Assembly: GCA_963785725.1 (NCBI GenBank)
Contig: CAWAWS010000016.1
Coordinates: forward strand, 448,339-512,338
From: an uncultured delta proteobacterium
GTDB lineage: Bacteria > Myxococcota_A > Polyangia > Palsa-1104
Length of the DNA stretch: 64,000 nucleotides
Reading direction: 5' to 3'
This document shows positions 7,895 through 47,090 of this stretch, in pieces. Each line of letters begins with the position of its first letter. The stretch's first letter is position 1. The notes under the pieces were generated by a model that searched no databases, was not told where the DNA came from, and saw only the letters and a list, made by a program, of their open reading frames with translations. The translations under genes were made by a program, and so were the position numbers.

Positions 7895-8316
7895 CGAAAC
7901 CCATTTCATTATTCGTGTTGGGTATGGCGTTATTGCGCATATCGATCACGTACGCGGCGCCGCCGGCGCCGACCGCCAACGAATACGACGTCGTCGTGGG
8001 CGCGATGCCGGCCGCCAAGATCGGCGAGCACGCCGCCGTCTCGCTGTCGATCCTGCCGCGCGCCGGCTATCGCCTGCTCGCCGACGGACCGCTGCTCGTG
8101 CGCCTCGCCGGCGACGGCCTCACGCCCGACAAAGCCCTACTGCGCCGCGAAGATGCCGTCGATCCGCGCGCCGAAGCGCCGCGCTTCGAGCTGCCGTTTC
8201 GCCGCCAGCGCGCCGCCAACGCGACGCTGACCGCCACGCTCACGTTCTACATTTGCAACGCCGCGCGCTGCCGCCCGGTCACGGAACCAGTTTATATCCG
8301 TGACCATACACCGTGA
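7891..8316 (+). CDS. Exported protein with a DsbD-N-like Cys pair
   Basis: Signal peptide; '[11 protein letters not shown]'; ATGA overlap with the upstream gene. Confidence 0.6.
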
Positions 8317-8971
8317 GGATATGACGCGGCTCTTTGCCGTCGGCCTCGATCATCTTGCGCAATTTGACGATGAAATTGTCGACCGTCCGATTGTTCGTGC
8401 GCGCGTCGATGCCCCATATCTTCTCCAGGATCTCGTCGCGCGACACCGGCTGCTGCTTGCGCTCGAACAATAACTTCAGCAACTCGACTTCGTAAAATGT
8501 CAGCGAATGCGTCTTTCGCGCGCGCGTGACCGTGTGCTTCTTGGCATCGATGGTCGCTTCACCAATCGTAAACAGATCCTCTTCGACCGGCGCGCGATGG
8601 CCCAAGCGGCGAAACATGGCCTTGATGCGCGCCAGCAATTCAGCGACGGAGAACGGCTTCGTGACGTAATCGTCGGCGCCGGCGTCGAGCCCGCGGATCT
8701 TGTCCGACTCCTGCCCGCGTGCCGTCAAAATGATGATCGGCACCAGCGTATTGAAGCGCCGCACCTCTTCGCAAACGGCATATCCATTCAAATCGGGCAG
8801 CATCAAATCGAGGATGACGCAGTCGGCGGCGCGGTCGCGCATGAGCTTGACCCCTTCGCGTCCGAGCCCGGTCGCGATGACGTCGAAACCTTCGAACTCG
8901 AGCGCGTCGGTCAAGCCGCGCACGATGTCGGGCTCATCCTCGACAATCAATATCTTCTTCTGCCCGCTCAT
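8279..8971 (-). CDS. OmpR/PhoB-family response regulator
   Basis: 'ILIVEDE', 'LDLMLP', '[10 protein letters not shown]', winged helix '[11 protein letters not shown]'. Confidence 0.95.
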
Positions 8972-9054
8972 GGGCGCACGCGCCCATGAGCGGACCGTCG
9001 ATCCGCTGGCCGAACGGGCCGGACGCTCACTATCGCTCGCTTACGCTCGCTCAT
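8968..9054 (-). repeat. MIRU-like intergenic element, copy 1, encoding a 28-aa bridging ORF
   Basis: [31 protein letters not shown] with ATGA overlaps at both ends; 25/31 nt identical to 45471-45501. Confidence 0.7.
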
Positions 9055-10631
9055 ATCCCGTATTCGCCCACCAACGAAAGCTCGCGCGGCTGCACGAGCG
9101 GAATATCGACGATGAACGCCGCCCCTTTGCCCGGCTCGCTATCGACGACGACGGTGCCGCCGTGCGCTTCGGCGATGTGCTTCACCAGCGACAGGCCGAT
9201 TCCCGAGCCGCGCACGTTCGTGCCGCGCGCGCCGCGCGTGCGATAAAAGCGCTCGAAGATCTTGCGCTGCTCGTCGGCGGGAATGCCGGGACCTTGATCG
9301 CCGACCACCAACCGCAGCCGATTTCCTTGGCGCGTCAAATAGACCGATATCTCGCCCTTGCCATATTTCACGGCGTTCTCGAGCAGGTTCAACAGGAGCA
9401 GCGTCATGGCGTTCTCGTCCATCGGCGCTTCGGGCAAGCCGGGATCGATCTTCGTCACCAGCTTGAATCCTTCGCGCTCCAGACGATGGCGATAGACGTC
9501 GAGCGAGCGCTCCACGACCTCATCGAGCCGCCCGGGCACGAACTCGTAGGCCGCGCGCCCGCGCTCGATACGCGCGAAATCGAGCACGTTGTCGATCAGC
9601 CGCGATAAGCGCTCCGCTTCGCGTGTAATGATCTCCGCATATTCTTTCCCCTTTTCCGGCGTCTTTAGTTTTCCTAAAGCCAACAGTTCGCCAAACATGC
9701 GAATCAGCGACAACGGCGTCTTCAGCTCGTGCGAAACGTTGGAGATGAAGTCCGATTTGGCTTCGTTGGCGCGCGATTCTTTCCAGGTCGCGTAAAAGAG
9801 GAAGCCGATGCCCGACAAGATCGTCAAGAGCATCATCGTGATCAGCAAGAACTCGGAGCGACGGCGCACGCCTTCTTGATTGGCGAGCCGCGCCGCACCG
9901 ACGGGCGCCATCTGCAATCGCCACAAATACAGCGTCGTTGGAAACGCCTTCTCGAAGAGATATTTGCCGGGATGACCGACCGGCGCGCCGTACACGACGT
10001 TGCCCGCGCCGTCGCGCACGCAGACGAGCTCCTTACCGGCGACGTCTTTGAGCTCGAGCGGCAATAAGCTCTGCTTGACGTATTCGAGCGATACTTTGAG
10101 CACGACGTAATAAACGCGATCGCCGTGCAATTTCTTGATGAACGAAATGAGGTAATCGCGATTGTTGTATTCGCGATGCATATGTTTATGCAGATCGACC
10201 TTTAGATCTTCGAGCGGCAAATCGGGCAAGATCTTCTTCATGAACAGCTCGCGAAACGCCGTGGCGTCGGCGTCGCGGCGCTTCGAGACGTAGCCGCCCG
10301 ACAACAATTGCAGCTTCTCGTCGAGCACCAGCGCCGCCTCGATAGCCGGCGACACGCGCACGATATAGCTCCAGTTCTGCTTGAAGTCGCCGAGGTGATC
10401 GACGTCGACGAGATCGAATAGTGAGCGGTCGCTGTCGACGATGACGTTGTCGATGCGCTTTAGGGTCTCGTCGCCGAGCAGGCGATTGGCGTCGACGAGC
10501 GACTGCTCCGACGACTCGGCCAGCTGCGCGGCATAACGAAAGCCATAGCCGGCGAGCGCGATCGCCGCCGCCAGCACCAGCGGCACGATGATGAACAACG
10601 GCGAGAACCGCTGTTTGGACTGCTTCGCCAC
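9051..10631 (-). CDS. Sensor histidine kinase (HisKA/HATPase)
   Basis: Two TM helices, H-box 'VSHELKTPL', 'NLLENAVKY', 'DQGPGI', 'GSGIGL'. Confidence 0.95.
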   Translation of the reverse strand: MAKQSKQRFSPLFIIVPLVLAAAIALAGYGFRYAAQLAESSEQSLVDANRLLGDETLKRIDNVIVDSDRSLFDLVDVDHLGDFKQNWSYIVRVSPAIEAALVLDEKLQLLSGGYVSKRRDADATAFRELFMKKILPDLPLEDLKVDLHKHMHREYNNRDYLISFIKKLHGDRVYYVVLKVSLEYVKQSLLPLELKDVAGKELVCVRDGAGNVVYGAPVGHPGKYLFEKAFPTTLYLWRLQMAPVGAARLANQEGVRRRSEFLLITMMLLTILSGIGFLFYATWKESRANEAKSDFISNVSHELKTPLSLIRMFGELLALGKLKTPEKGKEYAEIITREAERLSRLIDNVLDFARIERGRAAYEFVPGRLDEVVERSLDVYRHRLEREGFKLVTKIDPGLPEAPMDENAMTLLLLNLLENAVKYGKGEISVYLTRQGNRLRLVVGDQGPGIPADEQRKIFERFYRTRGARGTNVRGSGIGLSLVKHIAEAHGGTVVVDSEPGKGAAFIVDIPLVQPRELSLVGEYGI

Positions 10632-40597: not shown

Positions 40598-42015
40598 ATG
40601 CGCCGGGCGAAAATCGTTTGCACGTTGGGCCCTGCTTCAAAAGAGCCCACATTCATCGGACATCTCATCGACGAGGGCATGAACGTCGCCCGGATCAACT
40701 TCTCGCACGGCGACCCGGAGGATCACAAGGCCGTGATCGCCGCCGTGCGCTCGGAGGCGGAAAAGCGCGGCCGTGCCGTCGCTGTCCTGCAAGATCTACA
40801 GGGTCCGAAGATCCGCGTCGGTCGCTTCGTCGCGGGCAGCATCGAGCTCGAGCCGGGCGCCGAATTCACGCTCACGACGCGTGAAGTGCCGGGCACGATC
40901 GACATCGCGTCGACGACATACAAGGGTCTGCCCGGCGACGTCAAGCCCGGCGACGTGCTCTTGCTCGACGACGGCCTCTACTCGCTCGAGGTCATCGAGA
41001 AGAACGAGACCGACGTGACGACGCGCGTCCTCATCGGCGGCACGCTGAAGAACAACAAGGGCATCAACTTGCCCGGCGTCAAAGTCTCGGCGCCGGCGCT
41101 GACCGACAAGGATCGCCAAGATCTACAGTTCGGCCTGCAGCTCGGCGTCGACTTCGTCGCGCTGTCGTTCGTGCGCAACCCGCCGACATCGACGAAGCGC
41201 TCGCGCTCGCCATTCGCCCCGACGGGCAAGCGCATCCCGATCATCGCCAAGATCGAGAAGCCCGAAGCGGTCGACTGCTTGGAAGAGATCATCGATCGCG
41301 CCGACGGCATCATGGTCGCGCGCGGCGATCTCGGCGTCGAAATGGGCGCCGAGAAAGTGCCGCTGATGCAAAAGCGCGCCATCGAGCAGACCAACGCCAA
41401 GGCAAGATCGTCATCACCGCGACGCAGATGCTCGAGTCGATGATCACCAACCCGCGCCCGACGCGCGCCGAAGCCTCCGACGTCGCCAACGCCGTCCTCG
41501 ACGGCACCGACGCGCTCATGCTCTCCGGCGAGACGGCTTCGGGCAAATACCCGCTGCTCGCCGTGCGCACGATGGCCACGATCATCGAAGAGATCGAAGC
41601 CTCGTCCCGCTTCAAGTCGCGCTTCGACGCCGCGACGCTCTCGTTCACCACCTCGGCCAACGCCATCGCCAAAGCCGCCGTCGTCGCGTCCCGTCAAACC
41701 TCCGCGAGCGCCATCGTCTGCATCACCGAATCCGGCGGCGTCGCCCGCCTCGTCTCCGAATACCGCCCCGAAGCCCGCATCCTCACCTTCACGTCCCAAT
41801 CCGAGATCTACAACCGCCTGGCCCTCTATTGGGGCATCGAACCGATCAAGGCCCCGCAAAGCCCGTCTTTCGACGCCCTCCTGGTCGACATCGAACGCCG
41901 TCTCCTCACGCAAAAGCTAGCCCCGCCCAACTCCACCATCATCCTAGTCGTCGCCGTCCCCATCGGCGCCGGCCAATCCGCCAACACCCTCCACATCCAC
42001 AAACTAGGCGCGTAA
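40598..42015 (+). CDS. pyk: Pyruvate kinase (frameshifts near 41180-41215 and 41400)
   Basis: 'KIVCTLGP', 'ARINFSHG', 'DLQGPKIR', 'IAKIE', 'MVARGDLG', 'PTRAEASD', 'MLSGETA'. Confidence 0.93.
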
Positions 42016-43657: not shown

Positions 43658-44056
43658 ATGAGCACCGAATATCCGGACGATCTGCGCTACACGAAAGAGC
43701 ACGAGTGGGCGCGTGTCGACGGCAACGTCGTCACCATCGGCATCACCCGCTTCGCCGTCGAGTCGCTGGGCGACATCACCCAGGTCGACCTGCCCAAAGA
43801 GGGCGAAGAGCTGAAGAAGGATTCGGTCTTCGGCACCGTCGAGAGCGTCAAGGCCGTGTCCGACCTGTTCGCGCCCGTCAACGGCAAGGTCGTCAAGGTC
43901 AACGATCCGCTCGGCGACTCGCCCGAGTACATCAACGAAGACCCGTACGATGAGGGTTGGATGGTGCAGGTGGAAATGAAGGACAAGAAGGACCTCGACG
44001 GTCTCATGTCCTCCGCCGACTACCAGGCGTACTTGAAGGAACAGGAGTCGCATTGA
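43658..44056 (+). CDS. gcvH: Glycine cleavage system H protein
   Basis: 'YTKEHEW', lipoyl motif 'VESVKAVSD', 'DPYDEGW'. Confidence 0.96.
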
Positions 44057-45474
44057 GCGAGAGTCGTAACCGTCAGCGCTACATTCCGCACACCGACGAC
44101 GACATCAAGCAGATGCTGGGTGTCGTCGGCAAGCCGTCGGTGGAGTCGCTGTTCGCGCATATTCCGGCGCGGCTGCGCGCCACGCGCGCGCTCGACATCG
44201 CGCCGCTCGACGAGAACTCGCTGCTCAAGCACCTCGGCGACATCGGCGGCAAGAACAAGCCGGCCATCGGCGCGACCTATCGCGACGGGGCGGCGCTGTC
44301 GTTCTTGGGCGGCGGCGTCACGCCGCACACGATCCCGTCGGCGGTCGACATGCTCTTGCAGCGCAGCGAGTGGTACACGAGCTATACGCCCTATCAGCCC
44401 GAGATTTCGCAGGGCACGTTGCAGGCGATCTTCGAGTTCCAGACGATCGTCTCCGAGCTCTTCGGTCTCGATGTCGCCAACGCCTCGATGTATGACGGCG
44501 CGTCGGCGGCAGCGGAAGGCGTGTTGATGGCGCGGCGCGTGACCGGCCGGCGCCACGCCATCGTCGCGGGCGCGATTCACCCGCACTACACGCAGACGAT
44601 CGATTCCTACATGGCCGGCGAAGAGGCCGGCTCGCACGAAGACTTCGGCGCCATCGGCTTCGGCGACGACGGTCGCGTGGCGCACAAGGCGCTGGAAGCG
44701 GCGCTGGCCAAGTCGGACGACATCGCCTGCGTCGTCGTGCAGACGCCCAACTTCTTCGGCGTCGTCGAGGATCTGCCGGCGTTGGCGGCCATGGCGCACG
44801 CGCGCGGCGCGCTCGTCGTCGTGGCCAACACCGAGCCGGTGGCGTTCGGCCTCTTGCATTCGCCGGGCGCGCTCGGCGCCGACATCGTCGTCGGCGAAGG
44901 GCTCGGCGTCGCGATTCCGCCGACCATGGGCGGACCGGGCGTCGGCCTGTTCGCGGCCAAGTCCGAGCACATGCGGCAGCTGCCCGGCCGGCTCGTCGGC
45001 GAGACCACCGACCGCGACGGCAACCGCGGCTACGTCTTGACCTTGGCGACGCGCGAGCAGCACATCCGCCGCGAGAAGGCGACGTCGAACATCTGCACGA
45101 ACCAAGGCTTGATCGCGCTCGCGTTCACGATCCACATGGCGCTGCTCGGGAAGCGCGGCCTGCGCGAAATGGCCGAGCTCAACCTGGCCAAGAGCGAATA
45201 CGCCAAGCAGCAGATCGCCAAGCTCAACGGCTTCTCGCTGGCGTTCTCGGGGCCGACGTTCAACGAGTTCGCGGTGCGCGTGCGCGGCGGCGACGCCAAC
45301 GCCACCGTGGAGAAGTTGGCCGACCAAGGGATCTACGCCGGCGTGCCGGCGACGATGGCGGGCATGATGCCCAAGGGCACGCACGACGATCTGCTGATCG
45401 TCGCCGTCACCGAGCGCCACACGCAGGCCGACATCGACAAGCTCGTCTCCGCTTTGGATTGGGTGCAGTCGTGA
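44053..45474 (+). CDS. gcvPA: Glycine dehydrogenase subunit 1
   Basis: 'RYIPHT', 'YTPYQPEISQG', 'NASMYDG', 'REQHIRREKATSNICTNQ'; TTG start overlaps the gcvH stop. Confidence 0.95.
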   Translation: MSESRNRQRYIPHTDDDIKQMLGVVGKPSVESLFAHIPARLRATRALDIAPLDENSLLKHLGDIGGKNKPAIGATYRDGAALSFLGGGVTPHTIPSAVDMLLQRSEWYTSYTPYQPEISQGTLQAIFEFQTIVSELFGLDVANASMYDGASAAAEGVLMARRVTGRRHAIVAGAIHPHYTQTIDSYMAGEEAGSHEDFGAIGFGDDGRVAHKALEAALAKSDDIACVVVQTPNFFGVVEDLPALAAMAHARGALVVVANTEPVAFGLLHSPGALGADIVVGEGLGVAIPPTMGGPGVGLFAAKSEHMRQLPGRLVGETTDRDGNRGYVLTLATREQHIRREKATSNICTNQGLIALAFTIHMALLGKRGLREMAELNLAKSEYAKQQIAKLNGFSLAFSGPTFNEFAVRVRGGDANATVEKLADQGIYAGVPATMAGMMPKGTHDDLLIVAVTERHTQADIDKLVSALDWVQS

Positions 45475-45566
45475 GCGAACGCATGCGAGCGAACGTGAGC
45501 GAGGCTGGTAGAGCCCGCGGATCGAAGCTGTTCTCGCGCTGCGCCTACGCAGGAGGTGCCGCGTGA
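45471..45566 (+). repeat. MIRU-like intergenic element, copy 2, encoding a 31-aa bridging ORF
   Basis: ORF MSERMRANVSEAGRARGSKLFSRCAYAGGAA* with GTGA overlaps at both ends; homologous to 8968-9054. Confidence 0.7.
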
Positions 45567-47090
45567 GCGACAAGAATACGAAGCCGGGGACGCCGATCGC
45601 GACGCGGCAGCTGTTGCATACGTCGCGGCCGATCTTCGAGCAGGGCGCGCCGGGCCGTTCGGGCGCGTCGCTGCCGCCGCTCGACGTGCCCGCCGTCGAC
45701 GCCGCCAAGCTGTTCGGCGGTCTGGCGCGCACCGACGCCGGCCCATCGCTGCCCGAAGTGAGCGAGGTCGAGGTCACGCGTCACTACACGCGGCTGTCGC
45801 GCTGGAACTACGCGATCGACCTCGGGCTCTACCCGCTCGGCTCGTGCACGATGAAGTACAACCCGAAGGTCAACGAGCGCGCGGCGCGCATGCCGGGATT
45901 TGCCGGCCTGCATCCGGCGCAGCCGGAGTCGACCATCGAAGGCGCGCTCGAGCTCATGTACGCGCTCGAGCGGGCGCTGTGCGAGATCGTCGGCTTTTCG
46001 CGCGTGACCTTGCAGCCGGCCGCCGGCGCGCAGGGCGAGCTCGCCGGCGTCATGATGATCCGCGCCTACCACGCCGACAAAGGGCGGCGACCGTCGAAGG
46101 TGCTCATCCCCGACTCGGCGCACGGCACGAATCCGGCGTCGGTGACGCTGAACTCGATGGAGACCGTCGGGCTCAAGACCGGCGCCGACGGACTCTTGAA
46201 CCTCGAGGCCGTGAAGCAGGCGGTGATGGCGCACAAAGACAATGTCGCCGCCATCATGATCACGAATCCGTCGACGCTCGGGCTCTTCGAGGAGCAGCTC
46301 GGCGAGATCGCGGACGTCGTGCACGAAGCGGGCGGGCTCGTGTACATGGACGGCGCCAACCTGAACGCGCTGCTCGGCAAGGTGCGTCCGGGCGAAGCGG
46401 GCGTCGACGTCATGCACATCAACCTGCACAAGACGTTCACGACGCCGCACGGCGGCGGCGGTCCGGGCTCGGGCGCGGTCGGCGTCGTCTCCAAGCTGGA
46501 GCCGTTCTTGCCCTCGCCCACCGTCGAGAAGACGGGCGACAAGCTACAAGCTCGAGTTCAATCGGCCGAAGTCGATCGGTCGGCTGCGCAGCTGGTACGG
46601 CAACTTCGGCATGTTCATTCGCGCCTACGCATACATCCGCGAGTTGGGCGGCGTGGGCCTGACGCACGCGACGGAGATGGCGGTCCTCAACGCCAACTAC
46701 ATTCGCGCCAAGCTCGCCGACCACTATTCGCTCGCGTACGACAAGCCGTCGATGCACGAGGTCGTGCTCACCGATAAGAAGCTCAAGCGCGAGACGACGG
46801 TGCAGACGCTCGACGTCGCCAAGCGGCTCATGGACTTCGGCTACCACCCGCCGACGATCTACTTCCCGCTGCCGGCGGTCACCGGCGGCGCCGGCGCGCT
46901 CATGATCGAGCCGACCGAGACGGAGACGCCGCAGACGCTCGACGCGTTCTGCGAAGCGATGGTCGCCATCGCCGAGGAAGCCAAGCGGGATCCCGAGATC
47001 GCCAAGAACGCTCCGCACGGCACCGCGCTACGCCGCCTCGACGAGACCAAGGCCGCGCGCAATCCGAAGCTCCGCTGGACCAAAGAATAA
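45563..47090 (+). CDS. gcvPB: Glycine dehydrogenase subunit 2 (frameshift near 46545)
   Basis: 'YPLGSCTMKYNP', 'AHGTNPAS', 'NLHKTFTTPHGGGGPG'; C-terminal 'MIEPTETE' in ORF 46611..47090. Confidence 0.93.

Follow-up and report, generated by a model that had tools for sequence, protein, structure and literature searches.

The kinase-regulator junction

This analysis concerns a repeat element of 87 nucleotides (nt) that lies between a sensor histidine kinase gene and a response regulator gene in a 64-kb window, the window being the whole stretch of DNA analysed (64,000 nt from an uncultured delta proteobacterium). Coordinates are those of the window unless a contig is named. The window's own genome, designated G000, is a metagenome-assembled genome (MAG) of 8.9 Mb with 68% GC, 47 contigs and 88% completeness; G001 to G004 are genomes of the same genus and G010 belongs to another genus. 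The features of the junction are listed in the direction of the minus strand.

9051..10631, minus strand: sensor histidine kinase of 526 aa, the upstream gene (open reading frame (ORF) list; NCBIfam PnpS/PhoR/WalK-type core, E 5e-60, under the equivalog cut-offs)
8968..9054, minus strand: element copy, a 28-codon mini-ORF from ATGA 9054-9051 to ATGA 8971-8968, period 83 nt (2 mod 3)
9024..9054, minus strand: 5' module of the element, better conserved in the family than any other part and containing three (R)TGAGCG-like repeats, R being A or G; sequence ATGAGCGAGCG..AGCGAGCGA..GTGAGCG (near-invariant columns in two alignments; entropy profile)
9002..9023, minus strand: middle hairpin module, a GGCC..GGCC core within TCC...GGA, then a conserved GATCGA
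8964..8993, minus strand: 3' hairpin with a 4-nt loop, a stem of 13 Watson-Crick pairs, or 15 pairs when the U.G and the G-C are counted, and the regulator ATG (8971-8969) in its 3' arm
8279..8971, minus strand: OmpR/PhoB-family response regulator of 230 aa, the downstream gene (NCBIfam RpaB/PhoB/MtrA-type, E 1e-58 to 1e-61)

By NCBIfam profile search, the kinase is of the PhoR/PnpS-like type and the regulator of the OmpR/PhoB type. The kinase stop codon (TGA 9053-9051) lies inside the first ATGA of the element, the TGA of the mini-ORF overlaps the ATG of the regulator at the other end, and both ends of the copy read ATGAGCG. This doubly coupled layout of 28 codons with ATGA at either end had been described in the original prediction, made from the letters alone, and was confirmed to the base. 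Folding of nucleotides 8950-9070 as minus-strand RNA recovered the stem that the prediction had drawn over the regulator ATG (8964-8976 with 8981-8993) with all 13 Watson-Crick pairs, extended by one U.G and one G-C pair, and these 121 nt fold with a z-score of -3.0 relative to 200 shuffles. The remark that no ribosome-binding site is obvious also held, as a search for GGAG, GAGG, AGGA, AGGT and GGTG found no such Shine-Dalgarno (SD)-like motif in the 16 nt 5' of the regulator ATG.

A dispersed repeat family

The kinase-regulator spacer belongs to a repeat that has inserted many times, with start codons as its landing sites. The sequence pattern proposed for the element has five exact sites in G000 and 44 at up to five mismatches. 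A hidden Markov model (HMM) built from the pattern matches and iterated once (nhmmer, cut-off E<=1e-3) finds 43 copies at 35 loci of this genome, and with the further copies in relatives and metagenomes this bears out the predicted dispersed family. The window copy matches at full length with an nhmmer E of 1e-16 and scores 84 bits with covariance model R1. Tandem arrays of two to three units occur at 7 of the 35 loci, and arrays are also present in metagenome contigs. An Rfam search with six element loci (E<=1) returned a chance miRNA match only and no matching family.

Units are 74-98 nt in size and are built of four parts: a near-invariant 5' module (RTGAGCGAGCG..AGCGAGCGAA.GTGAGCG), a small GC hairpin (GGCCC-GTA-GGGCC), a conserved GCGGATCGA, and a variable 3' hairpin with RTGA at its end. 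Of the 35 G000 loci, 32 have RTGA at the 5' end, and at 26 this RTGA holds the stop codon of an upstream ORF no shorter than 80 codons. The RTGA that closes the mini-ORF, or the chain of mini-ORFs of an array, is at 27 loci also the start of an ORF no shorter than 75 codons. Full-length units carry RTGA at both ends in 24/24 cases in G000 and in 28/29 cases in relatives.

A subfamily (G000 C5:47126-47208, C14:157470-157550 and C35:76665-76737; locus L013) keeps the 5' module and the middle hairpin and has another 3' hairpin, GCTCGTTGACCTC..GAGGTCA.ACGAGC. In several of its copies the ATG of the element runs directly into the downstream ORF as an N-terminal extension, the ORFs so extended being one of 93 codons with a hydrophobic stretch and one of 1175 codons.

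Empty and filled sites

At the very same kinase-regulator junction, a plain ATGA overlap is found in three congeners (G001, G003 and G004) and in G010, so that the empty junction anticipated by the original prediction exists in four relatives; G002 has an unrelated 131-nt spacer there. The gcvPA/PB junction, which holds a second copy in the window, is an empty GTGA in G004 (TCGTGAGCGACAAG) and TGATG in G010, carries diverged element-like inserts in G001 and G002, and has another spacer in G003. In the opposite direction, 40 element loci from three congeners were set against G000. Ten had no flank pair in G000, five were spanned by a continuous match (the site being shared or occupied), and 25 had both flanks. 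The G000 gap was shorter than that of the relative in 24 of these 25, and the sole exception has a different repeat of 494 nt at the site. That junction (G000 C7:361520-362015 vs L078 of G001) contains 494 nt of degenerate tandem repeats (GACGTGCGCGATGTTCGC-like) that are unrelated to the element, and has thus been struck by two different repeats.

In clean alignments (L055, L058, L067, L071 and L082) the unit is inserted exactly at an RTGA stop/start overlap, and in others (L045, L050 and L081) the gene whose start codon it occupies lies behind a spacer or promoter-like sequence. A native RTGA overlap is present in 9 of the 25 empty sites of G000 under strict criteria and in 19 under lenient ones. 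The target is therefore the start codon of the downstream gene, mostly at a stop/start overlap and sometimes at a first gene or after a short spacer. Insertion at overlapping stop/start junctions, as originally proposed, describes most sites and has to be widened for these others.

The two ends of the units indicate what is duplicated and what is chosen. Only RTGA is reliably present at both ends, and its first base varies independently between them (15 GG, 13 AA, 11 GA, 11 AG and 2 GT; p=0.57 for the four main classes), and duplication of the start codon as a faithful direct repeat was accordingly rejected. After the 3' RTGA, GCG follows in 25/52 units and GC in 38/52, compared with 11.5% and 21% of 880 native RTGA junctions. 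Because GCG and GC are commoner here than at native junctions, sites that resemble the element's own 5' end (RTGAGCG) are preferred. The ATGAGCG at both ends of the window copy had been likened to a target duplication; of this, only the repeated RTGA is reliable across the family, as GCG is shared in those 25 units and R is independent. A long target duplication was also considered and rejected: a permutation test on the 12 nt before RTGA gave p=0.04, but the signal came from array units, to which the longer shared runs belong, and nothing is duplicated 5' of RTGA in 31/52 units. The shared RTGA(GCG) with its independent R would fit integration at a short core, in which the left R is that of the host and the right R that of the element.

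Near strains represented by soil metagenome contigs of low depth (91-96% identity) provide further alleles of the kinase-regulator junction. One is shorter by 63 nt. In a second, 73 nt are missing and 13 different ones are present, which makes it 60 nt shorter on balance; the frame is kept in both. The bridge between kinase and regulator in these strains (window 8972-9044; contigs of runs X1 and X4) is just 20 or 23 nt long. The 23-nt bridge repeats the last codons of the kinase and ATGAGCG, and the short bridges may be either decayed elements or small junction duplications.

At one site shared by G000 (L012, contig C12) and G004 (L047), the former has a short-subfamily unit with a period of 74 and the latter a long-subfamily unit with a period of 92, a difference of 18 nt that suggests repeated insertion or conversion at a single site.

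A frame that is kept and a peptide that is not

Distances from RTGA to RTGA were taken from the HMM ends rather than from ORFs in order to avoid circularity. This period is 2 mod 3 in 23/24 full-length units of G000, in 26/28 units of relatives, and, among the matches listed, in 52/54 distinct metagenome units, which form an independent set and show the upstream overlap in 39/45 cases and the downstream overlap in 41/45. Nine length classes occur (74, 77, 80, 83, 86, 89, 92, 95 and 98), and every one of them is 2 mod 3. The RTGA overlaps and these periods bear out the suggestion that a genome-wide search would return co-oriented, RTGA-bounded copies that keep the frame.

The long and short subfamilies differ by one 2-nt and one 1-nt indel, with which the total length stays in frame. 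The approximately ten codons in the middle are consequently read in different frames, as VRPVGPADR in one subfamily and ARRARGS in the other. The mini-ORF is thus kept open and in register; its length is conserved and its peptide is not. It could still be proposed that the mini-ORF encodes a functional small protein and that the repeats are its gene family, given that the frame is open in nearly all copies and that an N-terminal MSER.RANVS is conserved. We regard this as highly improbable. In addition to the frame change in the middle, the C-terminal third changes along with the variable hairpin, the mini-ORFs are between 25 and 33 codons long, and one near-strain allele retains just 7 codons. 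Entropy per codon position is 0.29/0.36/0.41, without a strong excess at the third position. A function of the peptide was rejected on the grounds of the differing middle frames and this entropy.

A separate observation concerns the 5' module, in which (G/A)TGA sites are possible at element positions 1, 11 and 25 (window 9054, 9044 and 9030, minus strand), at spacings of 10 and 14 nt. As an idea only, such spacing could let ribosomes that arrive in either of the wrong frames stop and restart stepwise into the frame of the mini-ORF, a kind of "frame funnel". Only some copies have the middle site, which is TAA in the window copy.

A covarying hairpin over the downstream start

The 3' hairpin holds an SD-like AGGTG or GGAG together with the new start codon, and it covaries. 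In 57-nt windows around the 3' start, the median pairing probability of the start codon is 0.99 in 52 units as opposed to 0.58 in 300 native RTGA junctions, with a minimum free energy (MFE) of -26.7 kcal/mol versus -19.5. An SD-like motif is found 4-16 nt 5' of the 3' start in 44/52 units, usually AGGTG or GGAG at the border of the loop and the 3' arm, and the window copy is one of the 8/52 that have none.

RNAalifold on a MAFFT alignment missed both hairpins because the variable region was misaligned. The structure was therefore named by hand and tested with slid-partner and shuffle controls on a structure-blind MAFFT alignment of 44 units. In the named structure 89.4% of cells are paired, compared with 31-44% when the partners are slid, and 12 pairs are changed on both sides as against 4.4+-1.3 in shuffles, with 0/500 shuffles reaching 12. 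Helix 2, the middle hairpin, is paired in 95% of cells and has both-side changes in 3/5 pairs. The sequences of the stems differ greatly between copies, and covariation links the start codon's first base to the base that faces it (CAC-GTG 13, CAT-ATG 12, CAT-GTG 2, CAC-ATG 0). On the fixed structure the 3' hairpin has 34 G.U and 14 A.C, an excess that leans towards selection acting on the sense-strand RNA.

An alternative possibility is that the hairpins are there to be recognised by a transposase or recombinase whose substrate is DNA in single-stranded or cruciform form, in the manner of elements of the repetitive extragenic palindrome (REP)/REP-associated tyrosine transposase (RAYT) type or those derived from the insertion sequences (IS) IS200/IS605. 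Hiding of the start would then be a side effect, and selection against polar effects would still maintain the frame rule. The element does have two GC-rich palindromes, of which the 3' one extends to the insertion boundary, and the loop of the middle hairpin is often GTAG, a motif carried by REP heads. When whole units are folded and the strands compared, the two are not clearly separated (80 G.U and 12 A.C sense, 61 and 18 antisense). Nevertheless, this explanation seems unlikely. The excess of G.U over A.C in the 3' hairpin argues against it, and stems that vary widely and yet pair with whichever start codon follows are hard to fit to a protein that reads a fixed sequence. Furthermore, the Y1 transposase profile PF01797 has no match in G000, which has most copies and is 88% complete, or in G002 (53% complete), and has three in G003, which has a single copy. 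Counts of PF01797 therefore do not track those of the element across 21 genomes, and this distribution gives no support to Y1/RAYT mobilisation or to placing the element in the REP/RAYT or IS200/IS605-derived class.

Proposed working of the element

It is probable that the 87 bases in the window represent one member of a dispersed repeat family, whose units occupy a junction in some genomes, are missing from the orthologous junction in others and keep their frame from RTGA to RTGA, and that ribosomes would likely be relayed from the kinase through the mini-ORF to the regulator. From the preservation of the frame together with the structure, we infer that the element would couple the translation of the genes on either side. 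The original SD and start codon of the host would now drive the mini-ORF, and ribosomes that finish the upstream gene, or that initiate at the old start, would translate it as a throw-away relay. In doing so they would melt the hairpin that hides the downstream start. On reaching the TGA overlapping the new start they would terminate, and at this start they would begin translation again. The hairpin would block independent initiation, so that translation of the downstream gene would depend on translation upstream, and an insertion would leave downstream expression alive in this dependent state. In the case of the window copy, with its 15-bp stem and lost SD, relay from the kinase would be the sole source of ribosomes for the regulator. 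Such a design would let a selfish element live inside operons at little cost.

Several points weigh against this reading. The full chain of overlaps is absent at 8/35 G000 loci: at three the element is fused in frame to the downstream ORF, at two (one being the three-unit array on C2) the frame is broken, and three are without a 5' RTGA. The pairing probability is below 0.8 in 31% of units, and in MFE folds the start codon is not paired as a contiguous triplet in 17/52. The hairpin could serve mobility at the level of DNA instead; the asymmetry between G.U and A.C is modest, and folds of whole units do not clearly separate the two strands. No transposase is linked to the element in the 21 genomes searched with PF01797. 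Copies are kin by descent and binomial p-values for the frame rule overstate the evidence, for which reason the nine length classes are the safer argument. Finally, G000 is a MAG in which two genes of the window look truncated, and some indel errors are therefore possible.

The same structure could also be understood as a regulatory cassette recruited by the host, in which the hairpin acts as an RNA thermometer or as a gate under the control of a protein or small RNA and tunes the ratio of downstream to upstream product (e.g., regulator to kinase), with copies kept because they are useful. Sequestration of the SD and start codon in a stable stem would suit this, as would the location of copies between partners sensitive to stoichiometry (kinase/regulator and GcvPA/GcvPB) and the fact that some sites are common to different species (5 spanning matches/40). 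We consider such recruitment rather improbable, since presence or absence varies among congeners at most sites, the flanking genes are functionally unrelated, tandem arrays and decayed or truncated copies are common, and the stem sequence is not conserved. This is the pattern of a selfish repeat that purifying selection keeps harmless.

Second copy and other sites in the window

The proposed pattern has exactly two sites in the window, namely the two copies, versus none in 100 shuffles. The second copy and an empty target lie on the plus strand.

43957..45474, plus strand: GcvPA, 5' of the second copy, with its stop in the first GTGA of the element (NCBIfam GcvPA 548 bits, over the cut-off)
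45471..45566, plus strand: second copy, a 31-codon mini-ORF from GTGA 45471-45474 to GTGA 45563-45566, period 92
45563..46777, plus strand: GcvPB, 3' of the second copy, with a GTG start that overlaps the mini-ORF stop (NCBIfam GcvPB 454 bits, over the cut-off)
40598..40600, plus strand: empty target, the ATG of a pyruvate kinase gene (filled/empty alignment L081; Pfam PK barrel)

As had been noticed in the original prediction, the first 31 nt of the two copies (45471-45501 in the second) are identical at 25/31 positions, and GCGGATCGA is common to both. The hairpin of the second copy spans GGAGG and the GTG start. In G001, the ortholog of the window's pyruvate kinase gene carries the element exactly on its start codon, 3' of a promoter-like TATACT (L081).

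The GcvPB ORF (45563-46777, plus strand) looks cut short, with 404 aa that cover positions 4-317 of 487 in the profile, and is followed by a further ORF (46611..47090). The pyruvate kinase ORF (40598-41440, plus strand) has 281 aa and ends inside the barrel domain (positions 1-275 of 328). These short ORFs may reflect frameshift errors of the assembly or real breaks.

Range across genomes

BLAST with one unit matched three of the four congeners (7, 11 and 23 hits) and gave single matches in three other genera of the same family, with no match in eight genomes of two sister families. Covariance model R1 found matches in 3 of 150 other genomes of the class, with one copy in the congener G003, 13 in G022 of another family and one in G133 of a third family; in 150 genomes of the phylum it had 0 matches. 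The ATGA ... RTGA layout is the same in the four G022 loci examined, in the G003 copy and in the G133 copy. A pattern scan of genome contigs returned 44 loci. The whole element is present in 26 of them, and the records of all 26 bear the title Polyangia bacterium, Polyangium sp. or uncultured delta proteobacterium. In the remaining 18, which come from Actinomycetota, Halobellus, Planctomycetota and others, only the seed is matched, and these were set aside as chance or unrelated. In soil metagenomes at least 121 stretches were found, and the element is present in 71 of the 80 loci fetched.

Three loci in Actinomycetes bacterium MAGs (L091, L095 and L123) resemble the first ~40 nt of the element, including the small GGCC..GGCC hairpin, with the rest absent (nhmmer E 6e-4 to 2e-3). 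They may be chance matches, coding sequence or a distant relative.

Relation to known elements

The element can be likened to the MIRUs (interspersed repetitive units of mycobacteria), which form variable-number tandem repeats; it would appear to work as they do, the likeness being one of description and layout and not of sequence comparison. MIRUs are reported to insert at start codons, with an ORF coupled at -4 nt (Supply et al., 1997; as excerpted in PMC12548453). In the excerpt of PMC3184786 they are 40-100 bp long and number 40-50 copies, have both empty and filled sites, bear tetranucleotide direct repeats as well as GC-rich inverted repeats, and contain ORFs that overlap their neighbours; their use for genotyping is mentioned there too. 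Measured against these excerpts, the element (74-98 nt, 43 copies) agrees in size, dispersed copy number and location in operons, in its small ORF overlapping the flanking stop and start (-4 nt), and in its choice of start codons as insertion points. Also shared are orthologous sites that can be empty or filled, direct repeats of four nucleotides at the ends, GC-rich internal inverted repeats and tandem arrays, and MIRUs too were first seen in a two-component operon. The MIRU-like character proposed at the outset is thus upheld for size, layout and empty/filled sites as the excerpts describe them. Unlike MIRUs, the element has its host in another phylum, the records of its bearers among the relatives being titled Polyangia. 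The covarying hairpin that hides SD and start, the 3n+2 period over nine length classes and the preference for RTGAGC(G) are shown here and do not appear in the excerpted MIRU descriptions.

Other systems are more distant. The REP2 of Neisseria, in the excerpt of PMC3184786, brings a promoter and 5' untranslated region (UTR) and fuses its start to a gene, and is not described there as an ORF that relays from stop to start within an operon. Synthetic bicistronic designs, in the part of PMC12548453 that treats them, have a throw-away leader ORF that ends on the start of the gene and contains its SD, and translating ribosomes clear inhibitory structure. Such designs are engineered and immobile, whereas the natural element conserves structure rather than avoiding it. 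MITEs (miniature inverted-repeat transposable elements) and REPs or bacterial interspersed mosaic elements (BIMEs), as outlined in PMC3184786, are similarly short, non-autonomous, structured and multi-copy, with filled and empty sites. In contrast to them, the element sits on start codons and not in 3' UTRs, and it has no duplication longer than RTGA(+GCG). Assignment to the MITEs was rejected, as the inverted repeats are internal rather than of the terminal MITE type, most units have no duplication upstream of RTGA, and no partner IS was identified. For REP/RAYT elements, as portrayed in the same excerpt, the difference lies in the absence of a RAYT or Y1 transposase from the PF01797 matches in the 88%-complete G000.

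A full-text literature search yielded no account of comparable repeats in myxobacteria or in this lineage. The kind of element has been known since 1997; new, as far as the literature search shows, are the family, the lineage, the covarying hairpin, the 3n+2 rule over nine length classes and the RTGAGC(G) preference. A tentative further reading, which we hold to be possible rather than likely, is that riding on start codons is a convergent life-style of selfish DNA that arose independently of MIRUs. A core that mimics the 5' end of the element (RTGAGCG) would find starts, the hairpin would enforce coupling and not just preserve it, because the SD and start codon locked in it could be freed by an arriving ribosome alone, and the mover would be something other than the known HUH/Y1 transposases.

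Implications

The idea that arose from MIRUs, namely that a mobile repeat survives in operons as a relay frame, gains a second data set from outside the mycobacteria. It comprises insertion events in the hundreds, empty sites and near-strain alleles, together with the strict 3n+2 rule and the covariation of the hairpin over the start. For annotation, the mini-ORFs should not be called genes, and the N-termini of downstream proteins should be set at the terminal RTG of the element. As a design part, it would offer high-GC hosts a compact cassette of natural origin for coupling. Ultimately, if the convergent reading were true, start-codon riders would present a new problem of mobilisation and a natural part for bicistronic design, and would not be a mycobacterial oddity.

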